Shown: positions 16,013 through 62,130 of the stretch, in pieces
Layout of the letters: the number at the start of each line of letters is the position of its first letter
Numbering within the stretch: position 1 is the stretch's first letter
Assembly (NCBI GenBank): GCA_964431555.1
Contig: CAYSJW010000005.1
Span: forward strand, 15,215-79,214
DNA from: an uncultured Gammaproteobacteria bacterium
GTDB taxonomy: Bacteria; Patescibacteriota; Microgenomatia; UBA8517
Length of the DNA: 64,000 nucleotides
Direction: 5' to 3'
Translations under genes and position numbers: made by a program
The notes under the pieces: generated by a model
The model's database searches: none
Seen by the model: the letters and a program-made list of their open reading frames with translations, nothing else
Told to the model about the DNA's origin: nothing

Positions 16013-16181
16013 GAAAATATACTAAACTGTTTACTACAAATAAAATTTTACATTTATTTTTTTCCAAAAACAACCCACCACCCACTACTCACAACCCACA
16101 ACTCACTACCCACCACTCACAACCCACAACTCATATCTCACCCCCCCTTCTTTTACTCTGACTTAAATGTATAATTAGATT

Positions 16182-16880
16182 ATGGAAAAACTAACCACAC
16201 TTGCCCTCAAGCTTCCCAGAAACACTCAGGTTACGCCGGAAGCGGCAAAAACCTTCCTTTCTGCACTCATCCAAATTAACTTTATCTCTACCTTTAAAAA
16301 ACTTTTCGGCACTAAAAGAAAACCTTTAGCTTTAGAGATTGCTCTTATTAATCAACAAATCTACTTTTTGATAACTACGGATAACGAACTTATTCCCTTT
16401 ATAGAAACACAGATTACCTCAAATTACCCCTTGGCGATAATCGAAAAGACAAAAGACCCTCTTGAAGTAATTTCTTACAATTTAGTCAACATTTTCCTTC
16501 AAAAAGGAAACTATTATCCAATTGCCACATTTGAAAATTTTCAAGAGGTTGACCTACTCTCTTCAATACTTTCTGTTCTTGCGAAATCCGATCCAGACGA
16601 AGTCACAGTCATTCAATATGCACTTGAATCAACAAATAATTCTTGGCAAACAAAAGGAGCGGGCTTTGCAAAAAAAGGAACAAAAAACCCCGATGGTACT
16701 TATTCCCCAAGATTTGATTTAAATATCATAAACGAAAAAATTTCTTACCCAGGTTTCAGATGTAGCATCCGAATTATTAGTAATGCAAATAAAACCCTAA
16801 ATGAATTGTCAAGTGCCTTTGGTGTCTTTAATAGATCCGACGGAAATTACTTTATTTCTCAAAGACCTAATTTTTTTTAA
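16182..16880 (+). CDS. Hypothetical protein.
   Basis: A 232-aa ORF with ordinary composition for this genome; no recognisable motifs. Confidence 0.45.
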   Translation: MEKLTTLALKLPRNTQVTPEAAKTFLSALIQINFISTFKKLFGTKRKPLALEIALINQQIYFLITTDNELIPFIETQITSNYPLAIIEKTKDPLEVISYNLVNIFLQKGNYYPIATFENFQEVDLLSSILSVLAKSDPDEVTVIQYALESTNNSWQTKGAGFAKKGTKNPDGTYSPRFDLNIINEKISYPGFRCSIRIISNANKTLNELSSAFGVFNRSDGNYFISQRPNFF

Positions 16881-17027
16881 TAATAGGAGTATAAAAACTA
16901 AACCAACCGGAAAGTAAAATATACTCAGAACCTTCATCTATTACCAGCTTTTATCAGAGGTAATAATATAACACAAGGCAACTTCATCCCAAAAGGAAAA
17001 TGTTAACAAATTTTACCTTCTTATCCT

Positions 17028-18317: not shown

Positions 18318-18567
18318 ACCTTCCTTTTAATTGTCTTTACTATACCAAAAAGGAGGCTTCTTGTCAACTACAGGATGTTTTTTACTCAAAACAAGTATAA
18401 CTCACAACATGATATCTCTTAGGCATTTGCACAAGAGGTAGTACAAACTGCTCTTACCTCCTTGTCTTGCTGTTAAATCTTTACCCACCCTCCCCCAAGC
18501 TGTTTTTTATTTTCTTCCGAGAGGCTAGGCTATTTTCAGGCAAAAGTGTTATCATAAATAAAGCCCA

Positions 18568-19332
18568 ATGAATAACCACAAAAAGTTATTTATCTACACA
18601 ATTCTAATAACTACAGCCTTCTTTCTAACTCGACTAATAAATCTGACCTTACAACCTATTTTTTGCGATGAAGCTATTTACATAAACTGGGCCCAAAAAA
18701 CAGAGAACAATTTTAAGCTAAACGCTTTTTTGCCTTTAACAGATGGTAAAACTCCACTTTTTATGTGGGCAACTTCATTAAGCCTTAAAATTTTCAAAGA
18801 TCCTCTTTTTGCTGGAAGAATAGTCTCAGTTCTTGCCGGTTTTTCTTCTCTCATCGCCGCTTTTTTTCTCGGAAAAGAAATTTTCAAAACAAAAACAGGA
18901 ATTATCTCTGCTATTCTGCTAACTTTTCTGCCGTTTACTCTGTTTTTTGACAGAATGGCCCTAGTTGATTCAATGCTTGCCACTTTTTATCTTTGGTCCT
19001 TAGCGCTTGCCTTAAAAATATCTCAAAAGCCCAAGGTCAAAACAGCCGTTCTTTTAGGCTTAAGTTTGGGAGGAGGGATATTAACCAAAACCCCGGGAAT
19101 TTTTGCTTTTATCTCTTTACCCTTCATACTCATTGCAACCAACTTAAAAGATCTTAAAAAGGTAGCACTTAATCTTGGTCTTTCCGCTTTTATTGGTTTC
19201 TTTATTTTTAACCTGCTTAGAATTAGCCCCTATTTTGAAAACTTGTCAAAAAGAGACTCTGGGTATTACTTTCCCATAAGACATATCCTAGAAAACCCCA
19301 CAAATCCACTAACTGGAAATACAATAGGGTAA
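18568..19332 (+). pseudogene. N-terminal fragment of a GT-C fold (GT39/GT83, ArnT/PMT-like) membrane glycosyltransferase, truncated by IS insertion.
   Basis: Polytopic membrane N-terminus with FCDEAIYINWAQ (DE..Y loop motif of PMT/ArnT-type transferases). The ORF ends after 254 aa with a TAA lying inside the IS inverted repeat (GGGTAAAGT), whereas family members are ~450-550 aa. Confidence 0.5.
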
Positions 19333-20184
19333 AGTCTAATTATTCGGACCTTAAATGTTGATTTAATAACATAAATAAGCGTTTTTCTTGCTCTTTGAAA
19401 TTTTAATTTCTGTGATTGTATCGCCAGATGTATTCTCCAAGATATAAAGGCAGTCTTTGTTGACAAATTCCACCTCTAGCCGCTAGTTTCCTTTTCAAAT
19501 ATCCCCAAAATCCTTCAAGGCCATTGATGTGATTTCCTTTTTTATTAGAATACTCTTTTTTACTATGATCAACAAGTCGATGGACATAACCTTTGGATGC
19601 TAATCCAGTGTATCCTCGCCAAGTATCAGAACAGATGGTTGAACCTTTGCTAACTTGTTTTTCAATTAAGGGTTGTAAATCTCTGGCTTCTGTATCAGGA
19701 ACAATCTCAGCGAATATCTTTCCTTCCCGGCACAAAATACCAAAGACTGGTTGTTTAATAGTCCCAAAACCCCTGCGATTTTTACCATATTTTATGCAGT
19801 CTTTTTGCTTTCTATTCTTCATTTGACCACCCAAGTAAGTCTCATCTACTTCTACTATTCCCGAAAAGATGTCTGGCACATCTTTAGTCATTACTATTCT
19901 TAACAGAATTAATAATTTCAGAAGTTTGTATTTGGAAATGTTAACCCTTTCAAGGATAGTGTTGGTTGAATGTTCTAACACAAACTCAGAAATTACTTTT
20001 TTAACAACCCTTTTATTAAGTCTTAGAAGCTTCTTTTTCAGAGTAAATGACTTTCGACAAACTAAACAACGAAGACGTCCATCTTTTAATCTCCAGAACC
20101 TTTTGGTATTACTACATTGTAAACATTTCGTCATATTCCTAATGTGATTTTATCCCATTAGGTCTGAAATATTGAACTTTACCC
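19327..20184 (-). mobile_element. IS1595-family insertion sequence (~858 bp) with ~24-bp terminal inverted repeats.
   Basis: Left end GGGTAAAGTCTAATTATTCGGACC (19327..19350). The right end reverse complement is GGGTAAAGTTCAATATTTCAGACC (20161..20184). It encloses transposase ORF 19403..20134. Confidence 0.8.
19403..20134 (-). CDS. IS1595-family (ISXO2-like) DDE transposase.
   Basis: N-terminal zinc ribbon CLQCSNTKRFWRLKDGRLRCLVCRK and a C-terminal region ...HINGLEGFWGYLKRKL...YLGEYIWRYNHRN typical of DDE_Tnp_IS1595. Confidence 0.85.
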   Translation of the reverse strand: MTKCLQCSNTKRFWRLKDGRLRCLVCRKSFTLKKKLLRLNKRVVKKVISEFVLEHSTNTILERVNISKYKLLKLLILLRIVMTKDVPDIFSGIVEVDETYLGGQMKNRKQKDCIKYGKNRRGFGTIKQPVFGILCREGKIFAEIVPDTEARDLQPLIEKQVSKGSTICSDTWRGYTGLASKGYVHRLVDHSKKEYSNKKGNHINGLEGFWGYLKRKLAARGGICQQRLPLYLGEYIWRYNHRN

Positions 20185-20446
20185 TATATTATGAAAGCTT
20201 TCTAGTCAATGATAACTAAAATATTCAAAACATATCTTCAAAGCACCCCTTGTTAGAAGAGAAAAAAATTTCAAGCGGGATCGTGGGACAAAAAACCTCC
20301 TTGTAAAACTCTTGGTGGAGGGTACAGAGATGGTAAAAAATAGCAGTTAGCAATTAGCAGTTAGTTGTTAGTTGTTAGTAGTTAGTAGTTAGCAATTAGC
20401 AGTTGGCGGTTGGTAATTAGCAGTTGGTTTTTAGTAAAATGCAAAT

Positions 20447-20719
20447 ATGAGCGGTTTTGAGGATTTGAGGATTTATAGACTTTCTTTGGAGGGCTGCAAG
20501 ATAATTTACAAGATTATTTTAAAAGACCCTATTAAAAAAGATTACTCTTTAGTTGATCAAATAAAAAGGGCAGTTATGTCGATTGTCGCTAATATTGCTG
20601 AAGGTTATGGACGCTACACTAAAAAAGACCGCTCTCAGTTTTTAACATATTCAATTGGATCTTGTAATGAAGTACTAGCCTTTTTGGATATAATCAATAC
20701 TATTTGTAATATTGAATAA
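20447..20719 (+). CDS. Four-helix-bundle protein (TIGR02436, '23S rRNA intervening-sequence protein' family), short form.
   Basis: LRIYRLSLEGCKIIYKI...AVMSIVANIAEGYGRYTKKDRSQFLTYSIGSCNEVLAFLDI has the NIAEG signature. It is a paralog of the ORF inside the 16S IVS. It is flanked by inverted heptamer arrays at 20341..20427 and 20811..20880. Confidence 0.75.
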   Translation: MSGFEDLRIYRLSLEGCKIIYKIILKDPIKKDYSLVDQIKRAVMSIVANIAEGYGRYTKKDRSQFLTYSIGSCNEVLAFLDIINTICNIE

Positions 20720-21109
20720 TATTGATGTATCAAAAGAAAAGAAAGTTTTTCTTTCTCTAGGAAAACAAATCTATTCATTCCGTAAAGCCCTTCAGAATTC
20801 ATAGTATTAACTCACTGCTTACAACCAACTGCCTACTACCTACTACCAACTACTTTACTGCTATCTGCCCACTGCCTAACGTATTACCGTTTCTCTACCC
20901 TCTATCAAGGGAAAATTACGCCAAGGTATTGGCGAATCAATCCAACAAAGCCCTACGGCGGAGTTGGAAAATACCCGGAGCTGGCCGAACCAGTTTTAAA
21001 TCCTCTTTCTGTTTGCCAAGAGCTGGCACCAAGGTCGCTAAGCGATCGCGCAGCTCCCCACTAGTAAAGTGGCAATTGAAAGAAGAAAACCAAGCAATAG
21101 GAGGTTTGA

Positions 21110-21531
21110 TAATGAACACCAAACGGATGTTTTTACTGGGTATAGTTGCCCTGTTGGTGGTCGCATTCGCGACCGGTACGGCATTGTCAAGCGGAGCCGC
21201 CGACATTACCGTTGTTTATGAGGACGACTATATGGTCGTCTATCAAGACGGTGATTTCGGTAACCGTATTGCGCTGAATAAAGCGGGAGGCGTGGATGCC
21301 TACTGTCCGTGCGAGGACGTCTGTCCTTTAACCGCACAGGGTGCTCCGGCAACCGCAACGCAACCGCCGCAGACAACGGCAACCAGCCAACCCCCATATA
21401 ACGGGGTGTGGATTCATCACGAATCCCAGGGCGTTGGCGACCAAAGCTGGACGCGCTGCATGCCACCGAGTGCCTGGAATGGACACAGTCCCCACGAAGG
21501 GGACTGGCTCGGTGGAGGTTGCTACCGCTAA
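21110..21531 (+). CDS. Secreted Cys-rich hypothetical protein in a GC-rich islet.
   Basis: MNTKRMFLLGIVALLVVAFATGTALSSGAAD signal peptide, then PATATQPPQTTATSQPP and several Cys/Trp. The region 20880..22080 is ~52% GC, and the tracked ORF begins further upstream at 20929. Confidence 0.5.
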
Positions 21532-22185
21532 TCGTCATTCGGGGTAACCCCAACACTAAGTCAGTTGGAAACTGACGACAAGGGTTACCCCACCCCCTCT
21601 CCCTTGTACCAAGTTTTACTTGGTGAGAGGCTCATCGATCGATCGAAAGATGGGTAAAACAAGGAAAGCGGGGCTCGCGAAATGGTAATTTTGCCCTCAA
21701 GACGCTTGCGTCTTTCGTCTTACGCAGACGATTAATGAGTGGCGATTTAGCCAATTTGCGAGTATGCGGACTGTTTATGAGTTGTGTTTTGATTTTAGGA
21801 CGAAACGATAACCGTAAGGTTATCAAATCAAGTAGCCAAAAAGCTACAAATCCAAAAAATCAAATCCAACCCCCAAAATAGTCCCCCCGCAATAGTTAGT
21901 TTTCGACCAACAGTCGAACTGAAGAGATCTTGTCCGATAATTATCGGAATGCGATCGAAACTATTAAACAAATTAATTAGTGTGTCGTAACTGATCCCAG
22001 CACAGAACTTACTTGCTCCCGAGTACTACGTGCTCGCGTCACAAGAGCGTTTATGCGGGACAAGTGAGACCGAAAGGTTGAAACTAAAAAAATAGTTTAG
22101 TATTTAGTTATTAGTGGTTAGTATTTAGTTTAAATTACACCTTAACAATTTATTCATTGACCAAAAATCACGGAAGTGGTTTAAT

Positions 22186-22671
22186 GTGGATATGGGAAAA
22201 GGCAAAGTGTTGACCAAAAAAGATGCTGAATTTTTAAAACAGGAATTCAAAAGTGTCTTTGCAACCAAAGAAAACCTTAAGATTTTAAAAAAAGAAATCG
22301 CCAACAGGGTGACAAGGTCTGTTGTTCCTCAAGTTACAAGGTCAGTGGTTCCTGAAGTTACAAGATCTGTCGTCCCTGAAGTAGCTAAGGCTGTCGTTCC
22401 TGAAATAGCGAAGGCTGTTGTTCCTGAAGTAACTCAAGCAGTTATCCCTCAAATTAAATCCGTCGTAAAGCTTGTAATTTCTGGGGAGTTAACAGAACAA
22501 GAAGAAAAGTACGAAAAGAAACTTGAAGAATTTAAGAGCGAGTTCTTTGACAAGGTTGACCTGATTTTAAAAGAAATAACAACGGTACAGGAAGAAAGAC
22601 CTTTGATTGAAAGTCGACTTGAAGCCCTTGAAAAAATTCATCCGCAAGGTAAACACGTTCTTTCATCCTAA
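22186..22671 (+). CDS. Tandem-repeat / coiled-coil hypothetical protein.
   Basis: Seven tandem 27-bp (9-aa) repeats VTRSVVPQ/VTRSVVPE/VAKAVVPE..., followed by a charged predicted coiled-coil C-terminus. Confidence 0.55.
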   Translation: MDMGKGKVLTKKDAEFLKQEFKSVFATKENLKILKKEIANRVTRSVVPQVTRSVVPEVTRSVVPEVAKAVVPEIAKAVVPEVTQAVIPQIKSVVKLVISGELTEQEEKYEKKLEEFKSEFFDKVDLILKEITTVQEERPLIESRLEALEKIHPQGKHVLSS

Positions 22672-23028
22672 TCACCCTTTAAAACCAAATCCCGTGTGTT
22701 TTCCTACCCGCAATGCCTGAAGCATAGCCAATGAAAACTGTCTGTGCAGGATTTGAAAAACGATTTTAATGGACCTGCACTAATTATTCAACTTGCTACA
22801 AATAAAAAAATTATTTAAATTTGATTGAGTAGGTTTATAATTAAAACATAGCTACCCAAAAGCGTGGGGGTAACCAAAGGTAAAAAACATAACCTAAAAA
22901 ATTATGTTACCTCTAAAGCAAAGTCCTGTACCGAATGGTATGGGACACTCCGCCGTCCTTGGGTAAAATCAAGGAAAGCGGAGAAACCAAAGGTTGCCTC
23001 CACACTTTTGGGGATCCAAGATTAGGAT

Positions 23029-23679
23029 TTAGTTTTGCGAAGATAAAATTGACTCAATTTTATTTCTGTTTTTTTCATTATCATCAGCATTAACTACTAA
23101 AATTACTTTTTCTATTTTTGAATCAGGTCTATCTTTAAAATAGTCTTTGATACCTCCAATAATTGATAATAATCGCGGCCTAAAAGTTTCCGGAGTAATC
23201 TCTCCAAATAAAGGAACTGCCACCGTCTTCACTTCAGCAGTACTTTCAGCCACCTCCAAAGAATTTCCAACTGCCAACCTCACTGGATCTTGACTTTTAC
23301 TTTCTCCAGTATTTGATATATTTGTATGAATTATTTTCTTAACCGAAGATCCTTCTAATCCCACCCCAGTTGCCACCGAATATCCCGGAGGAATATGAAC
23401 TTCACCTTTTAAGCCTATTTCTCTTAAACTTCCTTTAAAATGACTTTCTGCCTCTTTCGCCTTTCTAAATGGATCATCCCCAAATTTGATAATCAGTAAT
23501 TCTCCTTCCAAAGAAGTACTAAAAAAACTCCCATCATACGGGCAAACTAAAGCATCAGCTGTAACTTCATCTATTCTTCCAAAACTAATACTAACCTTAT
23601 CCCTCCAAATAGGAGCCTCTAAACGAATTGAACCATCTCCCGTCTCTCCGTTTCCCATACTATATTCTCTCACATTCAC
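23029..23679 (-). CDS. Hypothetical protein.
   Basis: 216-aa ORF with coding-like composition and no secure family assignment. Confidence 0.4.
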   Translation of the reverse strand: MNVREYSMGNGETGDGSIRLEAPIWRDKVSISFGRIDEVTADALVCPYDGSFFSTSLEGELLIIKFGDDPFRKAKEAESHFKGSLREIGLKGEVHIPPGYSVATGVGLEGSSVKKIIHTNISNTGESKSQDPVRLAVGNSLEVAESTAEVKTVAVPLFGEITPETFRPRLLSIIGGIKDYFKDRPDSKIEKVILVVNADDNEKNRNKIESILSSQN

Positions 23680-24222
23680 CTAAATTCACAAAATCACCAA
23701 TTCCTCAACACCGGGAGTTGATCAGCTTCCAACAATGGGTCTTTTAGATAAAGTGAGTTGTTGGTTGTTAGTTGTTAGTTGTTAGTTGTTAGTGGTTAGT
23801 GGTTAGTTATTAGTTGTAAGAGGTATGGAATGAGGAGTGAGTGGTGGGTAGTGGGTAGTGGGTTGTGGGTTGTGAGTAGTGGGTGGTGAGTTGTGATAAA
23901 TAGATATAGGAAGTTAGAAGTTAGTAGTTAGTATCTGGGAGTTGAGGAAAATAAACCCAAAACACAAAATTCAAAATTGTAATAAAAATTTAAAAATTAT
24001 AATTATTAATATAAAGTAGAATCATTAACTATTAACCATAAATTAATAATAATTTACAGGTTTTGAAGTTTAGTATAAAGCTTTCAAGATTTAGCTTTTG
24101 AGACACAAATATTCTCCATAATAAAAGACCAACGCCATATAAAGATTCTGAATAGCAATTTTATTCACTACAAAGTATTTTGACTGGAAAAATAGTTCAA
24201 TACTATAATATCAAATTACAGC

Positions 24223-24792
24223 ATGAATCCGGAAAGAAAAAGGCAAACAACCTTAATTTCCACAGAGCTTGGGTTCACAGTATTATGGTTATATCTCGCA
24301 TGTTTAAGTGGTTGTGAGGAAAATCGACAACAACTCTCAACATTAACTCCTCCTCAACCACCAGGTGAATCATCCAAGGGTCGAGACCTTCTTCCAACTC
24401 TCCCATCAGTAAAGCCAGAAACAAGAATGGAAGAACTAGTCAACCAAATTGAGGAAGAAGGCTATAATTGTGAGCCGATTCCAAAAGGTAGTTGGCTAAC
24501 CCAAGAACTAAGAAAAAGAGGAGCTCCAGGGATCGATGAGGGACCATACAAAATTATCCGAAGAGGTGGTAAAGTAGAAACCTTTGAAACTTATGATCAG
24601 CTTCCTAACCTAGTTTATCCAGGTGAGCAATTTTGCATCAAAGAAAATGGCAGTTCCTCGATTATCCCCGGAAAAAATCATGGAGTTATTTTTGAATGGA
24701 ATAATATGCCTTTTGTAAGAACACAAAATAGGGCTTTCCAACAAAAAAGTCAAGAAATAACATCTAGGCTCCGCGCAAAACAAAGGTTCTAA
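24223..24792 (+). CDS. Putative lipoprotein.
   Basis: N-terminal h-region followed by the lipobox LACLSGC. 189 aa. Confidence 0.5.
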   Translation: MNPERKRQTTLISTELGFTVLWLYLACLSGCEENRQQLSTLTPPQPPGESSKGRDLLPTLPSVKPETRMEELVNQIEEEGYNCEPIPKGSWLTQELRKRGAPGIDEGPYKIIRRGGKVETFETYDQLPNLVYPGEQFCIKENGSSSIIPGKNHGVIFEWNNMPFVRTQNRAFQQKSQEITSRLRAKQRF

Positions 24793-25079
24793 AATCTCAA
24801 AAAATCCCCTAGTCAAATTTATATTTTGACATCCAAAATATGACTGGAAGCGGTCCCCGTTTTATCACAGTCAAAACGGCGAACTTAAAAACTGGGTGCT
24901 ATCACCCCTCTTTCGCAAAAAAGCAAAAAGAGGGTTCCCGTGAGAACTCCTTAGAAAGGAGGTGATCCATCCGCTCCTTCCAGAACGGATACCTTGTTAC
25001 GACTTAATCCTCATCGCTGGTTTCACCTTCCCCTCCGACTCGGAGGGTTCGGGTGCCCCCAACTTTGCTGACTTGACGG

Positions 25080-25951
25080 ATTGCACTTCATCGAAGTTAT
25101 CGTGCGTTCCCACTAAGCGAGCGGCTTTCCCGCACTTAGCGAGCCGTAATGCTTATTCATCTCCAGCTTCAATTTCCTAATAAAAGAGAGTTCTTTTTCA
25201 GAGAGCTTACGCACATCCTGCCTTCCCTTAACTATCTCGGCTATTTGGCAAAAAGCATTAAAACTTTCCGCTTTATAGCCCAAGAGTTTATGTCGTTTGA
25301 AAAAGGGTATTATGACATTGTAAATATCATCCCTTTTTGTAAATTCAAAGACCCAAGCAGGAAGACGACCCACGCGCCTAGCACTCTTTTGATAAACAGT
25401 CCCTACGTTGAAAAATTGCTGGACCTTTAAAAGCAATGGTTTATTTCCTTCAGCTTGAGTAATGAAAAATCGTAAATCGATTCTGTTATCAGCTCGAATA
25501 GATACAAGGAAACATCCCTCACCTTCTGTCAATCCAACAACATATGAAGCTGGAAGCATTACGTATTTCCCTTCGATAATGCCAGTATACGAATGTTTTC
25601 AATATACTGTCAATTATCTACTATGGAAATGCTGACTTCCTAAAAGGCAATTACTTCGTTCCTTTTAGGATCTCCGTGGGTCATCATATATTCTATTCCC
25701 GGCATGAACAAATTGCTTTTACAAACTGGCTTCCTTCTGACCGCCCAGCAGAAGTCGCCAAGCATTTTCATTTTGTCCCTGCCGTTTGCCTCAGGCCCTC
25801 CGTTCTATCGGTTACCCGTAAAAGCAAAGTTTATACTTTGCAATAGAACTGCCAATTTTTTGGCTACATTTCAAGTTGGTAAAGGTTAACCATCAAGAAA
25901 TGGTAAGATTTTAACTTACTAGAATATATGACTGCCACGCGCGCATTTATT
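25080..25951 (-). mobile_element. Group I intron in the 16S rRNA 3' domain, inserted after GTACACACCGCC, carrying a LAGLIDADG ORF.
   Basis: 16S collinearity stops after ...GGGTCTTGTACACACCGCC (plus 25952) and resumes at CGTCAAGTCAGCAAAGTTGGGGG (plus ~25079). The ~870-nt insert contains ORF 25113..25559. Confidence 0.85.
25113..25559 (-). CDS. LAGLIDADG-family homing endonuclease (intron-encoded, in 16S).
   Basis: MLPASYVVGLTEGEGCFLVSIRADN carries the LAGLIDADG-type motif VVGLTEGEGCF. 148 aa. Confidence 0.9.
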   Translation of the reverse strand: MLPASYVVGLTEGEGCFLVSIRADNRIDLRFFITQAEGNKPLLLKVQQFFNVGTVYQKSARRVGRLPAWVFEFTKRDDIYNVIIPFFKRHKLLGYKAESFNAFCQIAEIVKGRQDVRKLSEKELSFIRKLKLEMNKHYGSLSAGKPLA

Positions 25952-26414
25952 GGCGGTGTGTACAAGACCCGAGAACGTATTCACCGCGACTTTGCTGATT
26001 CGCGATTACTACCAATTCCGCGTTCATGAGGGCGAGTTGCAGCCCTCAATCCCCACTGAGAAGCCGTTTGATGGGATTAGCTCCGCGTTACCGCTTGGCA
26101 ACCCATTGTCGGCTCCATTGTAGCATGCGTGTAGCCCTGGACATAAGGGCCATGCTGACTTAACGTCATCCCCGCCTTCCTCCAAGTTTAACTTGGCAGT
26201 CCCGTATGAACAATCTAACATACGGCAGGGGTTTCGTTCGTTACCCCACTGAAGGGAACACCCCACGGCACGAACTTACGATAGCCATGCAACACCTGTC
26301 CTACCATCCAACTTTCGAAGGATCTGCTACTATTTCTAGTAACATAAACGGTAGGATGTCAAGTCCAGGTAAGGTTCTTCGGTCCGTCTCGAATTAAACC
26401 ACATGCTCCACTGG

Positions 26415-26446
<32 letters not shown>

Positions 26447-27359
26447 TAAACTTGCGTTCGTACTCCCCAGGCGGCTCGCTTAACGCGTTAGCTTGCGCCC
26501 CACGCCCAAAGGCGTAGGGCTAGCGAGCATAGTTTACGGCTAGGACTACAGGGGTCTCTAATCCCTTTCGCTCCCCTAGCTTTCGTTCCTCAGCGTCAAA
26601 CAGTTCATAGTTACCTGCCTTCGCCCTCGGTGTTCCTTGCGATATCAACGGATTTCACCCCTACACCGCAAGTTCCGGTAACCCCTAAATGTTTCGATTT
26701 CTTCAGTATTACCTCCCTTTCCGAGGTTAAGCCCCGGTCTTTGAAAGATAACTTAAAGAAACGCCTACGAACTCTTTACGCCCAATAAATCCGGACAACG
26801 CTTGCACCCTCTGTATTACCGCTGCTGCTGGCACAGAGTTAGCCGGTGCTTATTCTCCGTTCGGTCTCCCTCACGGCAAAAGTGGTTTACAACCCGAAGG
26901 CCTTCATCCCACACGCGGCGTCGCGGCGTCAGACTTTCGTCCATTGCGCACGATTCCCAGTTGCTGCCACCCGTAGGTGTATGGGCCGTGTCTCAGTCCC
27001 ATTCTGGGGGGTCACGCTCTCACGTCCCCTACCCGTCGTAGCCTTGGTAGGCCATTACCCTACCAACTAGCTGATAGGCCGCAGGCTCCTCCTTCGGCGG
27101 ACAGTTACATCCTTTGCTGCGTAGCAGCCAACCATCAACTAACAACAATCAACTCACAACTCTTATATTAGTTGTCTTTTAATTGTTGAAGCTCACAAGA
27201 TGAGCGTGTTGAAAGCTCGCTGCTGCGCAGCGTATGCGGTATTAGCCCCGCTTTCGCGGGGGTATTCCCCACCAAAGGGTAGATTCCTACGTGTTACTCA
27301 GCCGTTCGCGACTATCCGCAGGACAGAACATTCAACAATAAACAAGTAACTGGTTACAA

Positions 27360-27722
27360 CTAACTCTTCTTAAGATACTTCGAAAAACCTCCAAGTTGAT
27401 CAGCAATCTGCTTAGTTTCCTTTATCAACTCATTTTTTAAAGTAGAACTTATAAGTTTAGATTCAAATGCTATATCAATTCCAGCAGTAGTTTCATTTAT
27501 AGAACCTAATGAGTTGTTTAAATACATATTCAATTCTTTATCAGAGTCTTTGCCAGATCCTTCTGCGATATTAAGAACTACAGAGAGACTACTCCTTCTT
27601 ATCTGATCCGCTAATTCCCTATGTTCTCTCGGGAAAGTTTTACTTATCTCAACAACTGACAAATAAAATCTTTTTGCATCTTTATAAACTTTAAACCTCA
27701 TAAATCGAAATGTTTTATCCAT
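27360..27722 (-). CDS. Four-helix-bundle protein (TIGR02436, rRNA intervening-sequence protein) encoded inside an IVS in the 16S rRNA V1 region.
   Basis: MDKTFRFMRFKVYKDAKRFYLSVVEISKTFPREHRELADQIRRSSLSVVLNIAEGSGKDSDKE has the family-defining NIAEG motif. The ORF sits ~70 nt into the 16S, between inverted flanks GGTCCGCAGGAC / GTCCTGCGGA that form the IVS stem. Confidence 0.85.
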   Translation of the reverse strand: MDKTFRFMRFKVYKDAKRFYLSVVEISKTFPREHRELADQIRRSSLSVVLNIAEGSGKDSDKELNMYLNNSLGSINETTAGIDIAFESKLISSTLKNELIKETKQIADQLGGFSKYLKKS

Positions 27723-28157
27723 ATTCTTTGTTAATAATTAATAGTTACCAGTCGCAAGTTACAAGTTGATCTGTTCGGTCCTGCGGACCGTCCCACTTGC
27801 ATGCTTAAGGCACGCCGCTAGCGTTCGTCCTGGGCCAGGATCAAACCCTCAAATAAGTGACGAGTTTATACCCTAGTTGCGTATAAACAGCAACCAAAGT
27901 GTAGTTCGTCTATACGCCGGGTGTCAAATGACACCCGATCAGGTACCGAATGGCACCTGACTTCCAGTCATATTTTGAATGTCAAAGAGCAAAAATCAAA
28001 AAACCCACCAGATGGTGGGTTAATTTTAAGTTCCCGAATTAACGGAAAACCATCTGGCTCTTATTTCTTCATAAACTAAACTCAAATCAACTAAATGTAT
28101 TGAGCATATATAGTATATCAAAAAAATCAAACGAGTCAATTATAAATTTTTAGAATT

Positions 28158-32832: not shown

Positions 32833-33195
32833 AATGTAATTTCAATTAAGTTAAATAAGCAGGTAAATTATAACAAAAGACCAGTCCTTTTAAAACTCGG
32901 ATAACAAAAATATATTTTGTTCAAAAAGATTTCGTATAAAACATAGTTTTCCAGCAAATTTCCTAAGTCAAAGGGCTTCTAAGCTAAAACATTTGAATTC
33001 AAGTCCTCCCGAGCTTATAAATCTAGCAGGTTCAAAAAAACCAAAAATTACCCACTGTTGGAAGCTAATCAACACCCGGTGTTGAGAAATACTCACTACT
33101 CACAACTAACAACTCACTACCAACTTCTTACATCCTACATCCAATTTCCTATTGCCTTAACACTTAATAATTTGTCCTAATCTTCAATACCTAAG

Positions 33196-41472: not shown

Positions 41473-41772
41473 TCACTTTCCAAATTTTGTTTTAAGTTTT
41501 AATTTTTTAGTTTTAAGCTCTTTTAACTTCCACATAAAAAGCTTCGGCTTTGATTTAACGTTATAAGCTTCCTTGACAAAATTCCTCGCTTCTTCCAATA
41601 AAATTCTAGGTGTTTCCTTAGCCAGCTTGATATAAAGAGATTTATGATTAAGGTCACCCAATTCTTGGGCTAAATCGTAGCCATATTTTTGAAACTCGCG
41701 AGAAATATACTTATCCTTGCCTTTCTCAAACTTTTCCAAGATATCAGAAATTTTGGTAAAATCCTTAGGCAT
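41473..41772 (-). CDS. Hypothetical protein (99 aa, basic).
   Basis: ORF with coding-like composition and no motifs. Confidence 0.35.
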   Translation of the reverse strand: MPKDFTKISDILEKFEKGKDKYISREFQKYGYDLAQELGDLNHKSLYIKLAKETPRILLEEARNFVKEAYNVKSKPKLFMWKLKELKTKKLKLKTKFGK

Positions 41773-42311
41773 ACCAATTTATTTCTTAAACACATACAAC
41801 TAACAACTATTTCCTACATCCTACATCTTACTTGCTACTTCCTAACCCCAACTTCCAATCACCTACAACTAACCCCCTACCACTCACAACTAACTTCTCA
41901 CAACCCACCACTCATTTCCCATTACCTACAACCAATATCCATAACCCACTACTTACATCATCAACTTATTTATATTTAAATTTTTTATCCACTTTGATGA
42001 TTCGAATCATAGATACAGACTATCCTCATACACTTCACTAACAACAACCTATTACCTACTTCTCACTGCTCACTACCATCTGCTAATAACTACCAACCAC
42101 CTACTTCCTACTTCCTATATTCTACATCCTACATCTTACTTGCTACTTCCTAACCCCAACTTCCAATCACCTACAACTAACCCCCTACCACTCACAACTA
42201 ACTTCTCACAACCCACCACTCACTACTCACTACCCACTACTCACTATCCACCACTCACTACCAACAACCAACTACTCACAACTCCCTACCCTCTCAAATA
42301 AATCAGGGATA
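41770..42311 (+). repeat. A 540-nt tract almost devoid of G on the plus strand, built from degenerate heptamer repeats (CYCACWA / CCACTAM). It contains a 100-bp perfect internal direct repeat.
   Basis: Only ~7 G in 540 nt. Heptamer periodicity is visible, e.g. CCACTCA CAACTAA CTTCTCA CAACCCA CCACTCA. 41814..41914 is identical to 42123..42223. A 14-bp perfect palindrome ATGATTCGAATCAT lies at 41997..42010, preceded by the DnaA-box-like TTATCCACT. Confidence 0.9.
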
Positions 42312-42853
42312 ACTTTTTCAATTACCTCTTTGAGTTTTACTTTCTCATCTTCCCTAAAATCCTGCAAAACATATTTTTCTCCCGGAATCCTTTCAACAAA
42401 ACTTCGATTATCCACCCCAATTCTTACTCTCCAAAAATCCTTTGTCTTCAGTTCCTTCTCGATAGACAAAATCCCATTATGAAGCTTCGGACCAACACCA
42501 AATTGGATTTTATAATCTCCAAGCCGTAAATCCAAATCATCATGAATAACCCAAAGATCTGGCAATATTACTTTAAAATGATTTATCAATTTATACAATG
42601 CAATTCCGGATAAATTCATAGACGTTTGGGGTTTTGCAAAAACAGTTTTTTGATTAGAATTTTCAGAATTTCTGCAAATACAAATCAAGGACTGAAGTTT
42701 ACTATTATTTTTAAATTTCAAGTCACAATTTTTATTTTTCAATTTTAAATTTTGAATCTGAAAGACCAAGGCATCCAAAATCATAAACCCAATATTATGT
42801 CTTGTACCTTCAAATTTTTTCCCCGGATTTCCCAAACCGGCAATTAATTTCAT
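42272..42853 (-). CDS. pth: Peptidyl-tRNA hydrolase.
   Basis: MKLIAGLGNPGKKFEGTRHNIGFMILDAL is the Pth signature N-terminus. 193 aa. Confidence 0.9.
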   Translation of the reverse strand: MKLIAGLGNPGKKFEGTRHNIGFMILDALVFQIQNLKLKNKNCDLKFKNNSKLQSLICICRNSENSNQKTVFAKPQTSMNLSGIALYKLINHFKVILPDLWVIHDDLDLRLGDYKIQFGVGPKLHNGILSIEKELKTKDFWRVRIGVDNRSFVERIPGEKYVLQDFREDEKVKLKEVIEKVIPDLFERVGSCE

Positions 42854-54607: not shown

Positions 54608-55738
54608 TTAAACTTTCAATTTAATTTTTTCCACTTTCTCAAATCTTTCTACATAATGCGGGTCAGCTGTTGTGATTATCGTTTGTTGCCCCTTTGTAGC
54701 TTCAAAAACAATATCTCTGTGCTCATGGTCAAGTTCAGAAAAGATATCATCAAGCAGAAGCGTTGGCTTTTCTTTGGTTACCGACTCAATGTAAGATAAT
54801 TCCGCCAGTTTCAGCCACAAAACTCCCATTCTTTGCTCTCCCCTACTTCCGTATCGCGCAAGCTCTCTTTCTTTCTTTCCCGCACTTGTTTTCTGATTTT
54901 TGATTTTGAAAATCATATCATCTCTGTGCGGCCCAACCAAAGTTGAAGCAGCGGCTACTTCTTCTTCAGCGTACTGATTTAAGCGAGCTTCAGAAATTGC
55001 ACTTGGATCGTATTCCAAACTAAACCTCCCGTTTATATCGGATTTTAAAATTGGAATTTCTGACTTATTCGCAAATTCTATAAACTCACGCCGTTTCCCG
55101 CTTAAATAATCGCCATTCTTAATAAGAAGCTGATTCCAAAAAAGAAGTTGCGTACGGGATATTCCCTCTTCTCTTATTCTCCAAAGAAGTCTATTTCTTT
55201 GACGCAAACCTTTCTCATAAGAAAGCAAAGCACGCCTATATTCCCTATCCACCTGCGATAAAACAGTATCCAAAAATTTTCTTCTTTTAGAAGGCTCCTC
55301 GGTAACCAGTTCCAAATCCCACGGTCCAAAAAGAACTACCTTTAAATTTCCGGTGAAATCAAAAAGTTTTTTGCTAACCCCGTTTAACAATAATTTTTTT
55401 CGTGTAACTTTGGAAATTTTTCTCGGATTAGCTCCAACCGTAATCTCCCCTCTTGTTATAATAACTTCTAAATTAGTGCCAACTCGTTTTCCCCCTTCTT
55501 CTTTAACAATGCTTCCCTTAATTCTTGTTATCTCTTCATAATAATTGATCATTTCCTCTTCAATTCTTGCCCGAAAACTTTTTCCTGTTGAAAGGACAAA
55601 TAAACTTTCCAATATGTTTGATTTACCTGATGCATTCGGTCCAACAATAAAGTTCACATATGGTGAAAACTTGAGAAGTTTATCTTTAAAGTTCCTGAAA
55701 TTTTTTAGTTCCAACTTTGTAACAATCATTAGTTTCAA
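54608..55738 (-). CDS. recF: DNA replication and repair protein RecF.
   Basis: N-terminus KLELKNFRNFKDKLLKFSPYVNFIVGPNASGKSNILESL (Walker A) and C-terminus LLLDDIFSELD (Walker B / signature). Confidence 0.9.
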   Translation of the reverse strand: MKLMIVTKLELKNFRNFKDKLLKFSPYVNFIVGPNASGKSNILESLFVLSTGKSFRARIEEEMINYYEEITRIKGSIVKEEGGKRVGTNLEVIITRGEITVGANPRKISKVTRKKLLLNGVSKKLFDFTGNLKVVLFGPWDLELVTEEPSKRRKFLDTVLSQVDREYRRALLSYEKGLRQRNRLLWRIREEGISRTQLLFWNQLLIKNGDYLSGKRREFIEFANKSEIPILKSDINGRFSLEYDPSAISEARLNQYAEEEVAAASTLVGPHRDDMIFKIKNQKTSAGKKERELARYGSRGEQRMGVLWLKLAELSYIESVTKEKPTLLLDDIFSELDHEHRDIVFEATKGQQTIITTADPHYVERFEKVEKIKLKV

Positions 55739-58629: not shown

Positions 58630-59586
58630 CTAAAACAAACTTCCTTGGTTTTCCGAAACAATAGATCTACCAACCTCTTTCACTCTTTTTGCCAAGGACT
58701 TAAAACCATATTCGGAAAATAAATCTAGCACCTTTTGACTATCCACTCTCCAATTCTTCAATTTTCCCAAATCCACCTTAAATTCCATATCTTTTACAAT
58801 TCTGGCAAGTTTTTGAAACCTAAAAGCATTTTCTTTATCCTTTTCTAGTTTTTTTCTTGTTGATTCATCTAAATCCTTGAGGTGTTTATAAATACTCTCT
58901 AAACTCTCATATTTAGCCAAAAGTTTAACTGCAGTTTTTGGACCAATTCCAGAAACTCCCGGATAATTATCCGATGGGTCTCCCACTAAAGCTTTAAAAT
59001 CGGGAATCTGCTTTGGTTTTACCCCAAGTTTTTCAACTACATCCTCTTCCTTCATTAACTTAGCAGCCGATAAGCCTTTCACAGGCATATAAACACTGAT
59101 ATTTTTTCCATCATCAACGAGCTGCAGGATATCTCTATCTCCCGTAACAACAACAACCTCATCAATTCTTGACTGATTGAGCTGTTTAGAAGTCCCCGCC
59201 AATTGTAAGGCAAGCGTACCGATGATATCATCCGCCTCATATCCGGGAGCTTCAAAAATAGGTATATCCATTGCCGAAAAAACATCTTTAGTTTTCTCAA
59301 TTTGAACCTGCAAATCATTTTCCAAAGGAGGTCTTTGCGCTTGATAATCAGGAAACTCTTTTCGTCTGAAAGTAGGTTCTGGCCGATCAAAAGCAACAGC
59401 CAAGTGTGTTGGTTTTAGGTCTTGAATCACCCTTAAAAGCATTGAAACCAAACCATAAACGGCATTTATCGGTTCTCCTTTCCTTGTAGTTAAAGGAGGA
59501 AGAGCATGATAAGCGCGGTGCAAAATTGCGTGGCCGTCAATCAAGATAAGTTTGCGATTTGCTGATTTGGATAAAGATTCATTCAT
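58630..59586 (-). CDS. Stand-alone 5'-3' exonuclease / flap endonuclease (Pol I N-terminal-domain-like).
   Basis: KLILIDGHAILHRAYHALPP...AVAFDRPEPTFRRKEFPDYQAQR...GDRDILQL...IPGVSGIGPKTA (H3TH). 318 aa. Confidence 0.85.
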   Translation of the reverse strand: MNESLSKSANRKLILIDGHAILHRAYHALPPLTTRKGEPINAVYGLVSMLLRVIQDLKPTHLAVAFDRPEPTFRRKEFPDYQAQRPPLENDLQVQIEKTKDVFSAMDIPIFEAPGYEADDIIGTLALQLAGTSKQLNQSRIDEVVVVTGDRDILQLVDDGKNISVYMPVKGLSAAKLMKEEDVVEKLGVKPKQIPDFKALVGDPSDNYPGVSGIGPKTAVKLLAKYESLESIYKHLKDLDESTRKKLEKDKENAFRFQKLARIVKDMEFKVDLGKLKNWRVDSQKVLDLFSEYGFKSLAKRVKEVGRSIVSENQGSLF

Positions 59587-59880
59587 AGGAGAAATTCTTT
59601 AGTATTTAGTATTTAGTATTTAGTAGTTAGTGGTTAGTGGTCAGTGGTTAGTAGTTTATAGTTGATCATTAGCAATAAATTTTCCTTCCACCTTTCAACC
59701 AACCACCAACAACTTATAACTTATAACTTATAACTTACTTCTCACTACCCCCCTCTTACTTATCATCACTCACAGCTCACAATCCACTACTTATTTCTCA
59801 CTTCTCACAACCCACTACTCATAACTCACTACACGCTATCCACTTCTCACTATCTACACAATCTACGACTAACCTACCTT
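59587..59880 (+). repeat. Back-to-back inverted heptamer arrays: (TTAGTRG)n at 59590..59680 (C-free) switching to (CYCACWA)n at 59690..59880 (G-free).
   Basis: AGTATTTAGTATTTAGTATTTAGTAGTTAGTGGTTAGTGG... is followed by ...CTCACTTCTCACAACCCACTACTCATAACTCACTAC. The two halves are imperfect reverse complements. An 18-bp near-palindrome CGATAATTCGAATCATCG follows at 59899..59916. Confidence 0.85.
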
Positions 59881-60061
59881 TTAATGACTTATCCACTTCG
59901 ATAATTCGAATCATCGATGTAATTTAAGATTTACTAATTGTCAAGAACAATCCGATAATAATTTAAAATTAGCTACAATATTAATCGTATATATAAAGAA
60001 AATTTTTCCTGTATTAACTATTAACTAAAGTTTACTCCATACAGGCTAATACATAATTCTG

Positions 60062-60304
60062 AACTTTTATTCTATTTCAAATTCTCTTTACCTAACTACT
60101 CACAACTCACCACCCACCACTCACTTCCTACTCCCTAATCCCTACATCTTACTTCTTACATCCTATTCTTACTTCCTATAACCAACTACAAACAACCAAT
60201 AACTAACAACTTACCACTCACTACTCACCACCCACTACCCACCACTCACTTCTTACTTTATATTTCCTTTCTTTCCAACTATTTTTTCAAAATCATCTCT
60301 ATCT
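60062..60304 (+). repeat. 243-nt G-free heptamer-repeat tract spanning the ftsH stop and 3' flank.
   Basis: No G between 60062 and 60304. Repeats are of the form CTACTCA CAACTCA CCACCCA CCACTCA. Confidence 0.85.
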
Positions 60305-62130
60305 AGTGTTTCCTTCTCCAAAAGTGCATCCACAACTTTATCAACCAATTTCCTTTTTTCCGTAATCAATAATTTAGCTTTTTTATAACAACCATCAACT
60401 ATTCTAGATACTTCCGAATCGATTTTCTCCTGCATTGCTGGAGAAACTTGAGCTGGTTCATACCATTGTGCTTTTCCCATTTCGTCATAATCATATTGTG
60501 GTCCCAAATTTACCGGCCCCAAAGAACTCATTCCAAAATCAACCACCATTGCTCTCGCTAAACGCGTTGCATTCTCTATATCATTTGATGCACCAGAGGT
60601 CATTTCATTAAAAACAATTTCCTCCGTTGCTCGTCCCCCCAGAAGTGCCGTTATTTGCTGAAGAATTCTACTCTTAGTTTCATGCGTCCTGTCAGCCGCA
60701 GGAGGTATTAATGTATGACCTAAACTCATTCCCCTTGCAACTATTGATATTCTATGAACAGGATCCATCTTAGAGAGAAAGTGAGTTACAATTGCATGTC
60801 CGGCTTCATGATAAGCAGTAAGCTTTTTATCCTCCTCGCTTTGAAGTTTTTTCTTTGCCGGACCCAATTTAACCTTTGTAGCAGCTTCTTCTATATCACC
60901 TTCATCTATTAAGGTCTTATTCATACGAGCTGCCAAAATAGCCGCCTCGTTGAGCATATTTTCAATATCAGCTCCCGAAAATCCAACCGTCCTATCAGCA
61001 ACTCTTCCCCAGTTTATCTTTTTTGTAAATTTTTTACCCCTCGCATGTATTTTAAGAATCGCCAATCTTCCCTCCTTATCAGGCATATCCAAAACAACAC
61101 GTCGGTCAAAACGTCCAGGCCTTAAGAGAGCCGGATCTAAAAGATCTCCCCTATTGGTCGCCGCCAAAACGATTACATTGTCATTGGGTGTAAATCCATC
61201 CATCTCAACAAGTATTTGATTTAGTGTTTGTTCTCTTTCATCGTGTCCACCAATAAAACCTCTGCCTCTTTGTCTGCCAATTGCATCTATTTCATCAATA
61301 AAAATAATAGAAGGGGATGAAGCTTTCGCCTGCGCAAATAAATCTCTTACTCTTGACGCGCCAACACCAACGAGCATCTCCATAAATTCACTTCCCGCCA
61401 TTGAAAAAAACGGAACGCCAGCCTCACCTGCCACAGCTTTAGCCAGCAAGGTCTTTCCAACACCAGACGGCCCAAAAAGTAAAACCCCCTTGGGAGTTCT
61501 TGCTCCAATTTTTCTATATTTCCCTGGGTTTTTCAAAAAATCTACAACCTCTTCCAATTCCTTCTTAGCATCATCTACCCCTGCTACATCATCAAAAGTT
61601 ACACTCTGTTTACCTTTGGCAAAAAGCTTTGCCCTACTTCTCCCAAAAGAAAAAATATCTTGGGCTCCTCTTGTTTGGGCACGAATTATAAAGAAAAAGA
61701 AAATTGCCATTAAAACAATAGGCAATAAAACACCAATTATATCTCCAATAGATTTTGCTAATGTCTGATCTACAACTTTGTATTTAACATCCACTGGACT
61801 AATTCCAGCTTTGTCCAAAAGATCCGCCAAACTATCACCTGGTTCCTTTATTGCAGTTTTAACATCTCCGTTTTCGTAATTGATTATCAATCTCTCATTT
61901 TGAACAATTATTTCTTTTACCTTTCTTTCCTTTATATCCGAAAGAAGTTTGGATATCTCTACTTTACTTTCCGTTGACTGAAGCTGAAAAAGAGAAACAA
62001 TAAAAGGAGCAAAAAACATTATAATAAAAATAGTGACCAAAGCCTTCCAAAGATTAATTTTGAGTCTGAACTCAAATCTCTTTTCCTTTTTAACTGGATT
62101 TATTTTTCTAATTTCTTTCAAAGGATCCAT
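60253..62130 (-). CDS. ftsH: ATP-dependent zinc metalloprotease FtsH.
   Basis: Walker A GPSGVGKTLLAKAVAGEAGVPFF, SRH region and zinc site HEAGHAIV. N-terminal TM pair. Confidence 0.95.
   Translation of the reverse strand: MDPLKEIRKINPVKKEKRFEFRLKINLWKALVTIFIIMFFAPFIVSLFQLQSTESKVEISKLLSDIKERKVKEIIVQNERLIINYENGDVKTAIKEPGDSLADLLDKAGISPVDVKYKVVDQTLAKSIGDIIGVLLPIVLMAIFFFFIIRAQTRGAQDIFSFGRSRAKLFAKGKQSVTFDDVAGVDDAKKELEEVVDFLKNPGKYRKIGARTPKGVLLFGPSGVGKTLLAKAVAGEAGVPFFSMAGSEFMEMLVGVGASRVRDLFAQAKASSPSIIFIDEIDAIGRQRGRGFIGGHDEREQTLNQILVEMDGFTPNDNVIVLAATNRGDLLDPALLRPGRFDRRVVLDMPDKEGRLAILKIHARGKKFTKKINWGRVADRTVGFSGADIENMLNEAAILAARMNKTLIDEGDIEEAATKVKLGPAKKKLQSEEDKKLTAYHEAGHAIVTHFLSKMDPVHRISIVARGMSLGHTLIPPAADRTHETKSRILQQITALLGGRATEEIVFNEMTSGASNDIENATRLARAMVVDFGMSSLGPVNLGPQYDYDEMGKAQWYEPAQVSPAMQEKIDSEVSRIVDGCYKKAKLLITEKRKLVDKVVDALLEKETLDRDDFEKIVGKKGNIK

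Follow-up and report, generated by a model that had tools for sequence, protein, structure and literature searches.

The region analyzed here is the spacer that separates ftsH from a 5'-3' exonuclease gene in a 64,000-nt stretch of bacterial DNA (contig CAYSJW010000005.1), referred to below as the window. The G+C content of the window is ~35%, nearly all of its genes lie on the minus strand and the best homologues of its proteins belong to Candidatus Woesebacteria and Microgenomates genomes, so that we take the host to be a Woesebacteria-like bacterium of the candidate phyla radiation (CPR, Patescibacteria). Read in the sense direction, the 666-nt spacer consists of a G/T-rich heptamer array, an AT-rich core, a 30-nt palindromic element, a second G/T-rich array, a loop and a G-free array (Table 1). 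A preliminary description had presented it as a hairpin-capable pair of inverted arrays and as a member of a family resembling miniature inverted-repeat transposable elements (MITEs). As set out below, the repeats of the spacer are real and statistically well supported, but their structure had been over-interpreted: the spacer is ordinary simple-sequence DNA in an unusual host, and a mobile element is not demonstrated.

Table 1. Features of the ftsH–exonuclease spacer, of its boundary genes and of related loci (window coordinates; L005, closest relative; TRF, Tandem Repeats Finder)
Feature	Position	Strand	Basis or remarks
5'-3' exonuclease gene (318 aa), downstream boundary of the spacer	58630–59586	−	Pfam 5_3_exonuc_N, 5_3_exonuc
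Last 32 nt before the exonuclease ATG	59587–59618	−	28/32 identical to L005
Proximal array (3' arm), G-free on the sense strand	59598–59660	−	TRF 59598–59656; lag-7 z = 8.7
Hairpin loop, sense strand TTTATTGCTAATGAT	59661–59689	−	homologous to the L005 loop TTATTGCTGAAGGAT
G-rich 5' arm of the putative ancestral hairpin	59690–59761	−	homologous to the L005 spacer (alignment columns 498–580)
Middle heptamer array, higher-order periods of 14/28 nt	59762–59880	−	TRF rows 59763–59854; unaligned to L005
30-nt element TTATCCACTTCGATAATTCGAATCATCGAT	59889–59918		near-perfect 20-nt palindrome centred on TTCGAA; second copy at 41985–42014
AT-rich non-repetitive core	59919–60081		no further match in the window or in relatives
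Distal heptamer array, directly after the ftsH stop	60082–60252	−	TRF rows 60098–60250; lag-7 z = 7.8
ftsH stop codon, upstream boundary of the spacer	60253–60255	−	open reading frame (ORF) list
ftsH coding sequence (625 aa)	60253–62130	−	ORF list; Pfam Peptidase_M41, AAA, FtsH_ext
Sister locus (array, copy of the 30-nt element, array)	41773–42305	−	between pth and a 99-aa gene
Intact PF05635 module	20321–20900	+	four-helix-bundle gene (20447–20719) in complementary inverted heptamer arms

Heptamer periodicity of the spacer

Identity at a lag of 7 nt ranges from 0.57 to 0.76 across the three arrays (z = 7.1–8.7 against shuffles), with the remaining lags at background, and TRF reports periods of 7, 14, 21 and 28 nt in the spacer. 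The proximal array, where lag-7 identity is highest (0.76) and where TRF finds a period of 7 nt with 86–96% matches, is made on the sense strand of (CTAACCA)(CTGACCA)(CTAACTA)(CTAAATA)x3 units, i.e. (TTTAGTA/TTAGTGG)n on the plus strand; it includes a (TTTAGTA)x4.9 sub-block with 96% matches, and its (CTAAATA)x3 segment, which is kept in the closest relative, stops 14 nt 5' of the exonuclease ATG. Positions 59690–59880 hold degenerate heptamers of the CTCACTA/CCCACTA type (lag-7 z = 7.1), among them, in the G-rich 5' arm, a perfect (AAGTTAT)x3.9 block at 59711–59737 (100% matches in TRF). The sense strand of the distal array has no C and is rich in G and T, with units such as AGTGAGT, GGTGGGT and AGTAAGA; the array is part of a 244-nt run without G on the plus strand (60062–60305), which is not a chance run since G makes up 14% of that strand. 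The AT-rich region in between (59881–60061) displays no periodicity (lag-7 z = 1.0). Altogether, the spacer shows 7-nt head-to-tail repetition above chance, in intergenic DNA that extends from the stop codon of ftsH to the exonuclease ATG, and with many related loci, as do short tandemly repeated repetitive sequences (STRRs) and long simple sequence repeats (LSSRs).

The preliminary description was therefore right about the heptamer arrays (TRF; lag-7 z = 7–9), about the palindromic TTCGAA element that follows them and about the AT-rich DNA beyond. The strand asymmetry it reported is real but less strict than stated, as the tract described as C-free (59590–59680) contains four C and the one described as G-free (59690–59880) three G. 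Similarly, the second G-free tract, said to cover the 3' end of ftsH, does exist but overlaps ftsH by 52 nt only, and these 52 nt are ordinary conserved coding sequence, not repeat.

Pairing between the arms

The complementarity of the arms was assessed by shuffling each arm separately, which preserves its composition (G/T/A for one, C/A/T for the other). The abutting arms, formerly regarded as approximate reverse complements forming a hairpin-capable inverted pair, have hairpin energies that match those of the shuffled arms (z = −0.18 on the minus strand and +0.43 on the plus strand), and folds of the whole region do not stand out from dinucleotide shuffles either (z = +0.35 and −1.34). Likewise, the 5-mer spectrum similarity between 59590–59672 and the reverse complement of 59690–59880 is 0.19, against 0.23 ± 0.05 for shuffles, so that the resemblance is one of composition only. 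Complementarity to more distant tracts (59800–59882 and 60080–60160) is marginal, with z values of −1.7 to −3.8 that become −0.6 to −2.2 when heptamer units are permuted. The same arm test yields z = −7.1 around the PF05635 gene at 20447–20719 and −6.0 and −7.4 for two 16S rRNA hairpins, and is therefore able to detect real stems in this genome. The hairpin of L005, with z = −0.46, behaves like the spacer, and neither has the long, specifically complementary flanks of a PF05635-type stem module, which is as expected of a relic no longer selected for pairing. The folds predicted for the window and for L005 are single long hairpins whose base lies 2–5 nt 5' of the exonuclease ATG (z = −1.8 and −1.5) and whose stems are interrupted by an internal loop about every heptamer. 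Of the two outcomes that the preliminary description had named as weighing against it, one is observed, namely the lack of self-complementarity beyond composition, and the other is not, as the tract differs greatly from one species to the next.

Growth of the spacer in one lineage

The same FtsH is encoded by four further assemblies from at least three further samples, and the five assemblies (at least four samples) are 100% identical over 58630–62130, with a few single-nucleotide polymorphisms (SNPs) elsewhere. The spacer is thus neither an assembly artefact nor hypervariable at the strain level: among these assemblies we found neither the presence/absence polymorphism for which the preliminary description had suggested looking, nor the length polymorphism between close strains that marks phase-variable simple sequence repeats. 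As a side observation, the window differs from one of the assemblies compared (L002) at three sites only, clustered within 11 nt (54883–54893), at or beside a period-7 tract, (TTGATTT)n at 54886–54907, which lies within a coding gene.

Whereas near-identical strains are invariant, the spacer is only 129 nt long in L005, the closest relative, whose exonuclease is 80% identical at the amino acid level and whose adjacent gene is 54% identical at third codon positions. In the L005 spacer, a loop separates a G-rich heptamer arm from a C-rich one; its alignment with the window covers 59587–59775 only, which places ~490 extra nucleotides of the window between the ftsH stop and that segment. This lineage-specific block includes the distal array and ends proximally with the middle array; the arms of the window spacer carry two further insertions relative to L005, of 12 and 28 nt, the latter equal to four units. 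Later repeat growth and the unrelated core together account for ~75% of the spacer length. Relatives at 67–68% exonuclease identity retain the order tRNA-binding gene, ftsH, exonuclease gene; the spacers of four relatives measure 15, 86, 47 and 85 nt and are devoid of heptamer arrays, which are also rare in 20-kb loci of more distant relatives. Growth of the spacer has thus taken place in situ and in one lineage. In another Woesebacteria lineage (L054, 261–551), an unrelated 96-aa gene without a Pfam match sits on the opposite strand at the ftsH–exonuclease junction, which indicates that this junction has been altered more than once.

The only part of the spacer with evidence of constraint is the 32-nt leader that precedes the exonuclease ATG. 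To judge from the alignment with L005, these 32 nt look constrained, their identity being significantly above the 54% taken as neutral from third codon positions (P = 6e-5). Used as a probe for further relatives, the leader gave five metagenome matches, all of them chance matches in AT-rich DNA of unrelated organisms. A Shine–Dalgarno-like motif is present within 20 nt 5' of the start codon in 5 of the 38 window genes, so that initiation of translation seems largely Shine–Dalgarno-independent in this host; given this genome-wide scarcity, the repeats are probably not a substitute for a ribosome-binding site.

PF05635 stem modules and 16S rRNA insertions

The gene of the intact PF05635 module (Pfam E = 5e-23; fold z = −5.1) lies within a stem of ~110 nt that continues past the heptamers into unique sequence (GGAGGGTACAGAGATGGTAA / TTACCGTTTCTCTACCCTC), so that the module looks like an intervening sequence in something other than annotated rRNA. 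Its sense polarity over 20327–20900 (G-rich arm, loop or cargo, C-rich arm) is that of the ftsH–exonuclease spacer. A second complete PF05635 gene (27360–27722, within the 16S gene on the minus strand; Pfam E = 2e-25) is held by a ~470-nt intervening sequence at the tip of 16S helix 6 (V1), the inverted heptamer-like arms of which give z = −6.0. The true 5' end of the 16S rRNA is near 27853 (TTTGATCCTGGCCCAGGACGAACGC..., minus strand), whereas the Rfam match put it at 27399. The V2 region of the same gene contains a gene-less heptamer hairpin of ~100 nt (27115–27230, minus strand; fold z = −6.8, frequency of the minimum free energy structure 0.54), in which CAACAAT... units pair with GAGTTGT GAGTTGA TTGTTGT TAGTTGA. 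PF05635 ORFs in rRNA insertions of CPR bacteria have already been reported (PMC11270868).

The association of PF05635 genes with heptamers extends beyond this genome. Among the PF05635 loci that we collected (L009–L050), the flanks pair with z ≤ −4 against within-arm shuffles in 15 of the 39 testable ones, which come from diverse phyla. At least eight loci (e.g. L031, 2757–3433; L044, 1596–2365; L021, L039, L040, L012, L013 and L017) have inverted arrays of genome-specific heptamers abutting the gene, based on GCCAGTC, GGCAGGA, AGTGACA, ACTGAGT, GGGGTTC and others. Pairs of arrays around these PF05635/TIGR02436 genes include (GCCAGTC)n...(GACTGGC)n, (GGCAGGA)n...(CTGCCTA)n, (ACTGAGT)n...(ACTCAGT)n and (GGGGTTC)n...(GAACCCC)n, and the phyla concerned include Acidobacteriota, Chloroflexota, Bacteroidota, Omnitrophota, Gemmatimonadota and CPR. 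The L012 module is located in an rRNA operon spacer, between genes identified by eye as those of tRNA-Ile and tRNA-Ala. Heptamer-array flanks of PF05635 genes are not described in the literature that we searched.

The palindromic element and the heptamer family of the window

The two copies of the 30-nt element are identical at 27 of 30 positions, and none of 100 shuffles gave two matches. Homology around the element reaches ~45 nt, beyond which the spacer and the sister locus cannot be aligned. A degenerate pattern derived from it had no exact match in GTDB species genomes or JGI metagenome contigs. A 31-aa ORF (MIRIIEVDK...) starts from the palindrome, and its counterpart at the other copy, too short for the ORF lists and read by eye from the sequence, has 14 aa; neither has a ribosome-binding site, and we judged this candidate small gene to be coincidental. 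No ORF of at least 20 aa is present in the core (59919–60081), and matches to promoter and terminator consensus sequences are at chance level there, the perfect TTGACA at 59938–59933 having no usable −10 element at 16–18 nt. An Rfam search at a permissive E-value over 59400–60500 and 41600–42450 gave no match, nor did ARAGORN find a tRNA at GATTCGAATC, for which a tRNA-like reading had been considered.

The window contains 13 strand-asymmetric heptamer tracts, which add up to ~1.8 kb (~3% of its length) and lie nearly all outside protein-coding sequence, in intergenic spacers, rRNA operon spacers and the 16S gene. The tracts 59690–59880 and 60062–60252 share 5-mer spectra with the sister locus (similarity 0.49–0.77, against 0.44–0.51 ± 0.05 for shuffles), the match being clear in three of the four pairings and within ~1 standard deviation of shuffles for 59690–59880 versus 41773–41984; they also share k-mer spectra with 14474–14580 and 33087–33153. 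The proximal array instead resembles 22085–22137, 23742–23934 and the upstream arm of the PF05635 gene, so that two sub-families of heptamers can be distinguished. Membership of a single repeat family, as proposed in the preliminary description, is thus substantiated for 41770–42311 by the 5-mer spectra and the shared 30-mer, while the link to 20341–20880 is plausible only, through the same polarity and through the PF05635-like loop of the L005 hairpin described below. At most loci the sense strand is the G-rich one, including in the inverted gene block at 20–25 kb, i.e. the polarity of the arrays tracks transcription.

At the sister locus, the 30-mer copy is flanked by a duplicated 126-nt array segment, the two copies of which (41807–41932 and 42115–42240) are 308 bp apart and 94% identical. 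This duplication gives rise to spurious ORFs, namely identical ones of 27 aa and one of 96 aa (41689–41979). A search for relatives of this locus via Pth was uninformative, the nearest homologue being 59% identical.

Several other observations concern the surroundings of the arrays. The rRNA operon is stretched (11235–27853), with the 16S and 23S genes ~11.5 kb apart and protein-coding genes on both strands between them; the 23S gene is ~150 nt longer than the Rfam model and probably contains insertions as well. Arrays flank the tRNA-Ile gene (16030–16159), and another lies between the 23S gene and the next tRNA gene (14474–14580). A G+C-rich island (20900–22080; ~50% versus 35% for the genome), bracketed by arrays at 20808–20869 and 22087–22145, probably represents either foreign DNA or a structured RNA not yet described; it has no Rfam match, and its 139-aa ORF (21112–21531), which begins with a hydrophobic, signal-like segment, has no Pfam match. 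The spacer was also considered as a replication origin and rejected as such, since the cumulative GC skew is monotonic across the window and TTATCCAC boxes are at chance level (4 versus 2.4 expected). All assemblies terminate within ~250 nt of the right end of the window (~64000), and three of the four compared (one from ENA, two from JGI) begin ~25 nt or less past it, which suggests that another assembly-breaking repeat lies just outside. A search with one gene of the left end (2024–3298) found no record that extends the genome leftward.

Origin of the spacer

On balance, we think it probable that the spacer is made of non-coding heptanucleotide tandem repeats of the STRR/LSSR type, grown in place around a short, older hairpin. 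In the ancestor of the window organism and of L005, the spacer would have been ~130 nt long, with a small loop that joined a G-rich heptamer arm to a C-rich one. This short spacer was most likely what remained of a PF05635-type stem module without its gene, a module of the type that also forms the 16S intervening sequences of this genome. Moderate evidence for the loss of a gene comes from the matching arm polarity and from the loop of L005. The latter reads TATTGCTGAAGGATAAG, a 15/17 match (including an exact 12-mer) to 20593–20609, which encodes the conserved NIAEGY core of PF05635; a 12-mer shared with the PF05635 gene was obtained with 676 of 200,000 shuffled spacers (p ~0.003), and, in all the DNA examined, the 11-mer ATTGCTGAAGG occurs apart from the L005 loop only inside PF05635 genes. 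Searches by tblastn and blastn detected no PF05635 remnant in the spacer of the window or in 41773–42305. Specific pairing of the arms would have been lost once it was no longer selected. Both arms would then have lengthened as strand slippage added 7-nt units and 14/28-nt multiples, as suggested by the perfect (AAGTTAT)x3.9 block and the (TTTAGTA)x4.9 block, the 14/28-nt super-periods and the 28-nt gap within an arm of the alignment. The ~490-nt block (array, AT-rich core, palindrome, array) was probably gained by recombination between homeologous arrays; a similar array–palindrome–array unit is found at 41773–42305. The spacer probably belongs to the same transcript as ftsH and the exonuclease gene, in which it would form a C-poor, stop-codon-rich leader/trailer; its last ~32 nt 5' of the exonuclease start would be selected and the rest would have no sequence-specific function.

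Several points weigh against this scenario. The proposed ancestral state is drawn from a single 3-kb contig, L005, and the relic argument, which also requires two deletions, from one post hoc match of 12–17 nt. Length variants, which would show slippage directly, do not occur among the near-identical strains. A total of 666 functionless nucleotides and ~3% of arrays are unexpected in a small, compact CPR genome and may point either to a function or to a process that actively produces such arrays. Moreover, retention of the 30-mer at two loci despite diverged flanks suggests a function, and the fact that polarity follows the direction of transcription could point to a role at the RNA level.

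Such a role is at the heart of a first alternative, doubtful in our opinion, according to which the spacer would be a functional RNA stem module akin to rRNA intervening sequences, with arrays pairing in many registers and cleaved by RNase III so as to separate both mRNAs and leave protective end stems. It would account for the polarity of the arrays, for the single long hairpins predicted close to the exonuclease ATG in both species, and for an architecture and a polarity like those of the intact PF05635 modules and 16S hairpins of the same genome, the stems of intervening sequences being known RNase III substrates (PMC11270868). However, the arms pair at composition level in both species, whereas functional stems reach z values of −6 to −7; in addition, an internal loop breaks the predicted stems at roughly each heptamer, and the ~490-nt extra block would be unneeded for such a role. 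We consider it quite unlikely that the heptamers are sites for a repeat-recognising regulator of exonuclease translation or transcription, a protein that would bind RNA or single-stranded DNA, with the palindrome as a putative operator. The conservation between species, beyond neutral expectation, of the (ACTAAAT)n units and of the ATG-adjacent leader would fit this idea, as would the size and symmetry of the palindrome, which are those of a dimeric operator and are retained at two loci; heptamers adjacent to start codons have been proposed as regulators elsewhere (PMC4679880; bioRxiv 10.1101/2022.06.06.494920), but these functional claims are themselves speculative. Furthermore, most arrays of the window are not adjacent to a start codon in a consistent orientation, others having the opposite polarity, the absence of a Shine–Dalgarno motif is the norm in this genome, the units are highly degenerate (63–86% matches) and no candidate binding protein was identified.

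That the spacer or its ~490-nt block is a non-autonomous MITE-like insertion between ftsH and the exonuclease gene, the view taken in the preliminary description, appears very improbable. Like MITEs, the spacer is short, non-coding and confined to one lineage, and its ends are loosely inverted: the block is not in L005, the octamer AAGTAAGA brackets it (60258–60251 and 59761–59754), the outer arrays (59625–59656 and 60094–60125) are 81% complementary over 32 nt (z = −2.2 to −3.8, the value against unit permutation being −2.2), the 30-mer is common to a second array-flanked locus, and an unrelated gene has been inserted at the same junction in the L054 lineage. Yet AAGTAAGA is a repeat unit with four occurrences in the region and hence not a credible target-site duplication, the ends of the block are direct rather than inverted arrays, the two would-be copies in the 64-kb window have only 30–45 nt in common, the genome and metagenome collections that were searched do not contain the 30-mer, there is no nearby gene for a transposase or integrase, and L005 has a 129-nt miniature array at the site rather than an empty site. 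The hallmarks of MITEs, i.e. terminal inverted repeats exceeding composition, an unambiguous target-site duplication with an empty site, a family of alignable copies (within the window), a related transposase and polymorphism between strains, are thus all missing. Least credible of all is a phase-variable contingency locus in which the number of repeats would toggle expression of the exonuclease, since the region does not vary among the five assemblies, drawn from at least four samples, although SNPs occur elsewhere, degenerate units suppress slippage and the downstream gene is a housekeeping nuclease.

Comparison with known repeat systems

Like the spacer, the STRRs of heterocystous cyanobacteria and the LSSRs with 7-nt units are tandem intergenic heptamers of presumed slippage origin, found at many loci and with several sub-families of units. 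They are also occasionally incorporated in the helices of structured RNAs, as are the arrays described here; for instance, STRRs occur in cyanobacterial RNase P RNA. The arrays of the window differ from them in that the units are strongly degenerate instead of near-perfect (63–96% matches), in that they are long (170–290 nt) and strictly strand-asymmetric, G being absent from one strand, and in that they occur in the small genome of a CPR bacterium. LSSRs with 7-nt units were reported by Mrazek et al. (2007), as summarised in PMC4679880. Our literature searches found no description of heptamer arrays of this kind in CPR bacteria. The present case indicates that a streamlined CPR genome can hold ~3% of 64 kb as heptamer arrays, that such arrays can inflate a spacer of 15–130 nt to 666 nt within one lineage, and that they break assemblies, create spurious ORFs such as the 96-aa one at 41689–41979 and mislead the calling of rRNA boundaries.

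The TAACTGA repeats of Beggiatoaceae, Cyanobacteria and Bacteroidetes (MacGregor 2015, PMC4679880) resemble the spacer in being intergenic, in lying in some cases a few nucleotides 5' of a start codon and in the lack of a Shine–Dalgarno motif; the sense units beside the exonuclease ATG likewise start with TAAC or TAAA. A regulatory role has been proposed for the Beggiatoaceae repeats that lie 5' of start codons, as well as for the heptamers of Nostoc (PMC4679880; bioRxiv 10.1101/2022.06.06.494920). In Bacteroidetes, spacers that hold heptamer arrays have short counterparts without repeats in close relatives whose gene neighbourhood is the same (PMC4679880), and the present locus parallels these cases. 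By contrast, the unit sequence differs here, the number of units per array is far higher, the orientation relative to start codons is inconsistent, and the lack of Shine–Dalgarno motifs, being genome-wide, is uninformative.

Finally, rRNA intervening sequences with a PF05635/TIGR02436 gene (Leptospira, Coxiella, CPR; PMC11270868) share with the spacer a stem built from inverted flanks around a small cargo or none. The same genome possesses the 16S helix 6 module, the gene-less V2 hairpin and the non-rRNA copy at 20321–20900, and the L005 loop keeps a fragment resembling the PF05635 core. The spacer, however, lies between protein-coding genes, has no gene and lacks specific arm complementarity; it is at most a decayed relative of these modules. 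More generally, PF05635 genes lie between inverted, genome-specific heptamer arrays in this genome and at loci of at least eight other phylum-level groups, an association that links the proteins of rRNA intervening sequences with bacterial heptamer repeats, and a hairpin that is built alike but has no gene may be what is left of a PF05635 module. A broader proposal, unlikely as we see it, is that all heptamer-armed stem modules, with or without a gene for the PF05635 (Avd-like, four-helix-bundle) protein, form one family, in which the 7-nt repeats would arise or be maintained by a process tied to the module, possibly to the PF05635 protein itself, and not by generic slippage, the ftsH–exonuclease spacer being a decayed, over-grown member. 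If so, the modules would colonise rRNA helices, rRNA operon spacers and mRNA spacers across many bacterial phyla, loss of the gene could then seed runaway arrays, and rRNA intervening sequences would go back to the same origin as the long-unexplained heptamers of cyanobacteria, Bacteroidetes and Beggiatoaceae. Should the link between PF05635 and heptamers prove general, it would provide a testable origin for bacterial heptamer repeats, which have been a functional puzzle since 1990.

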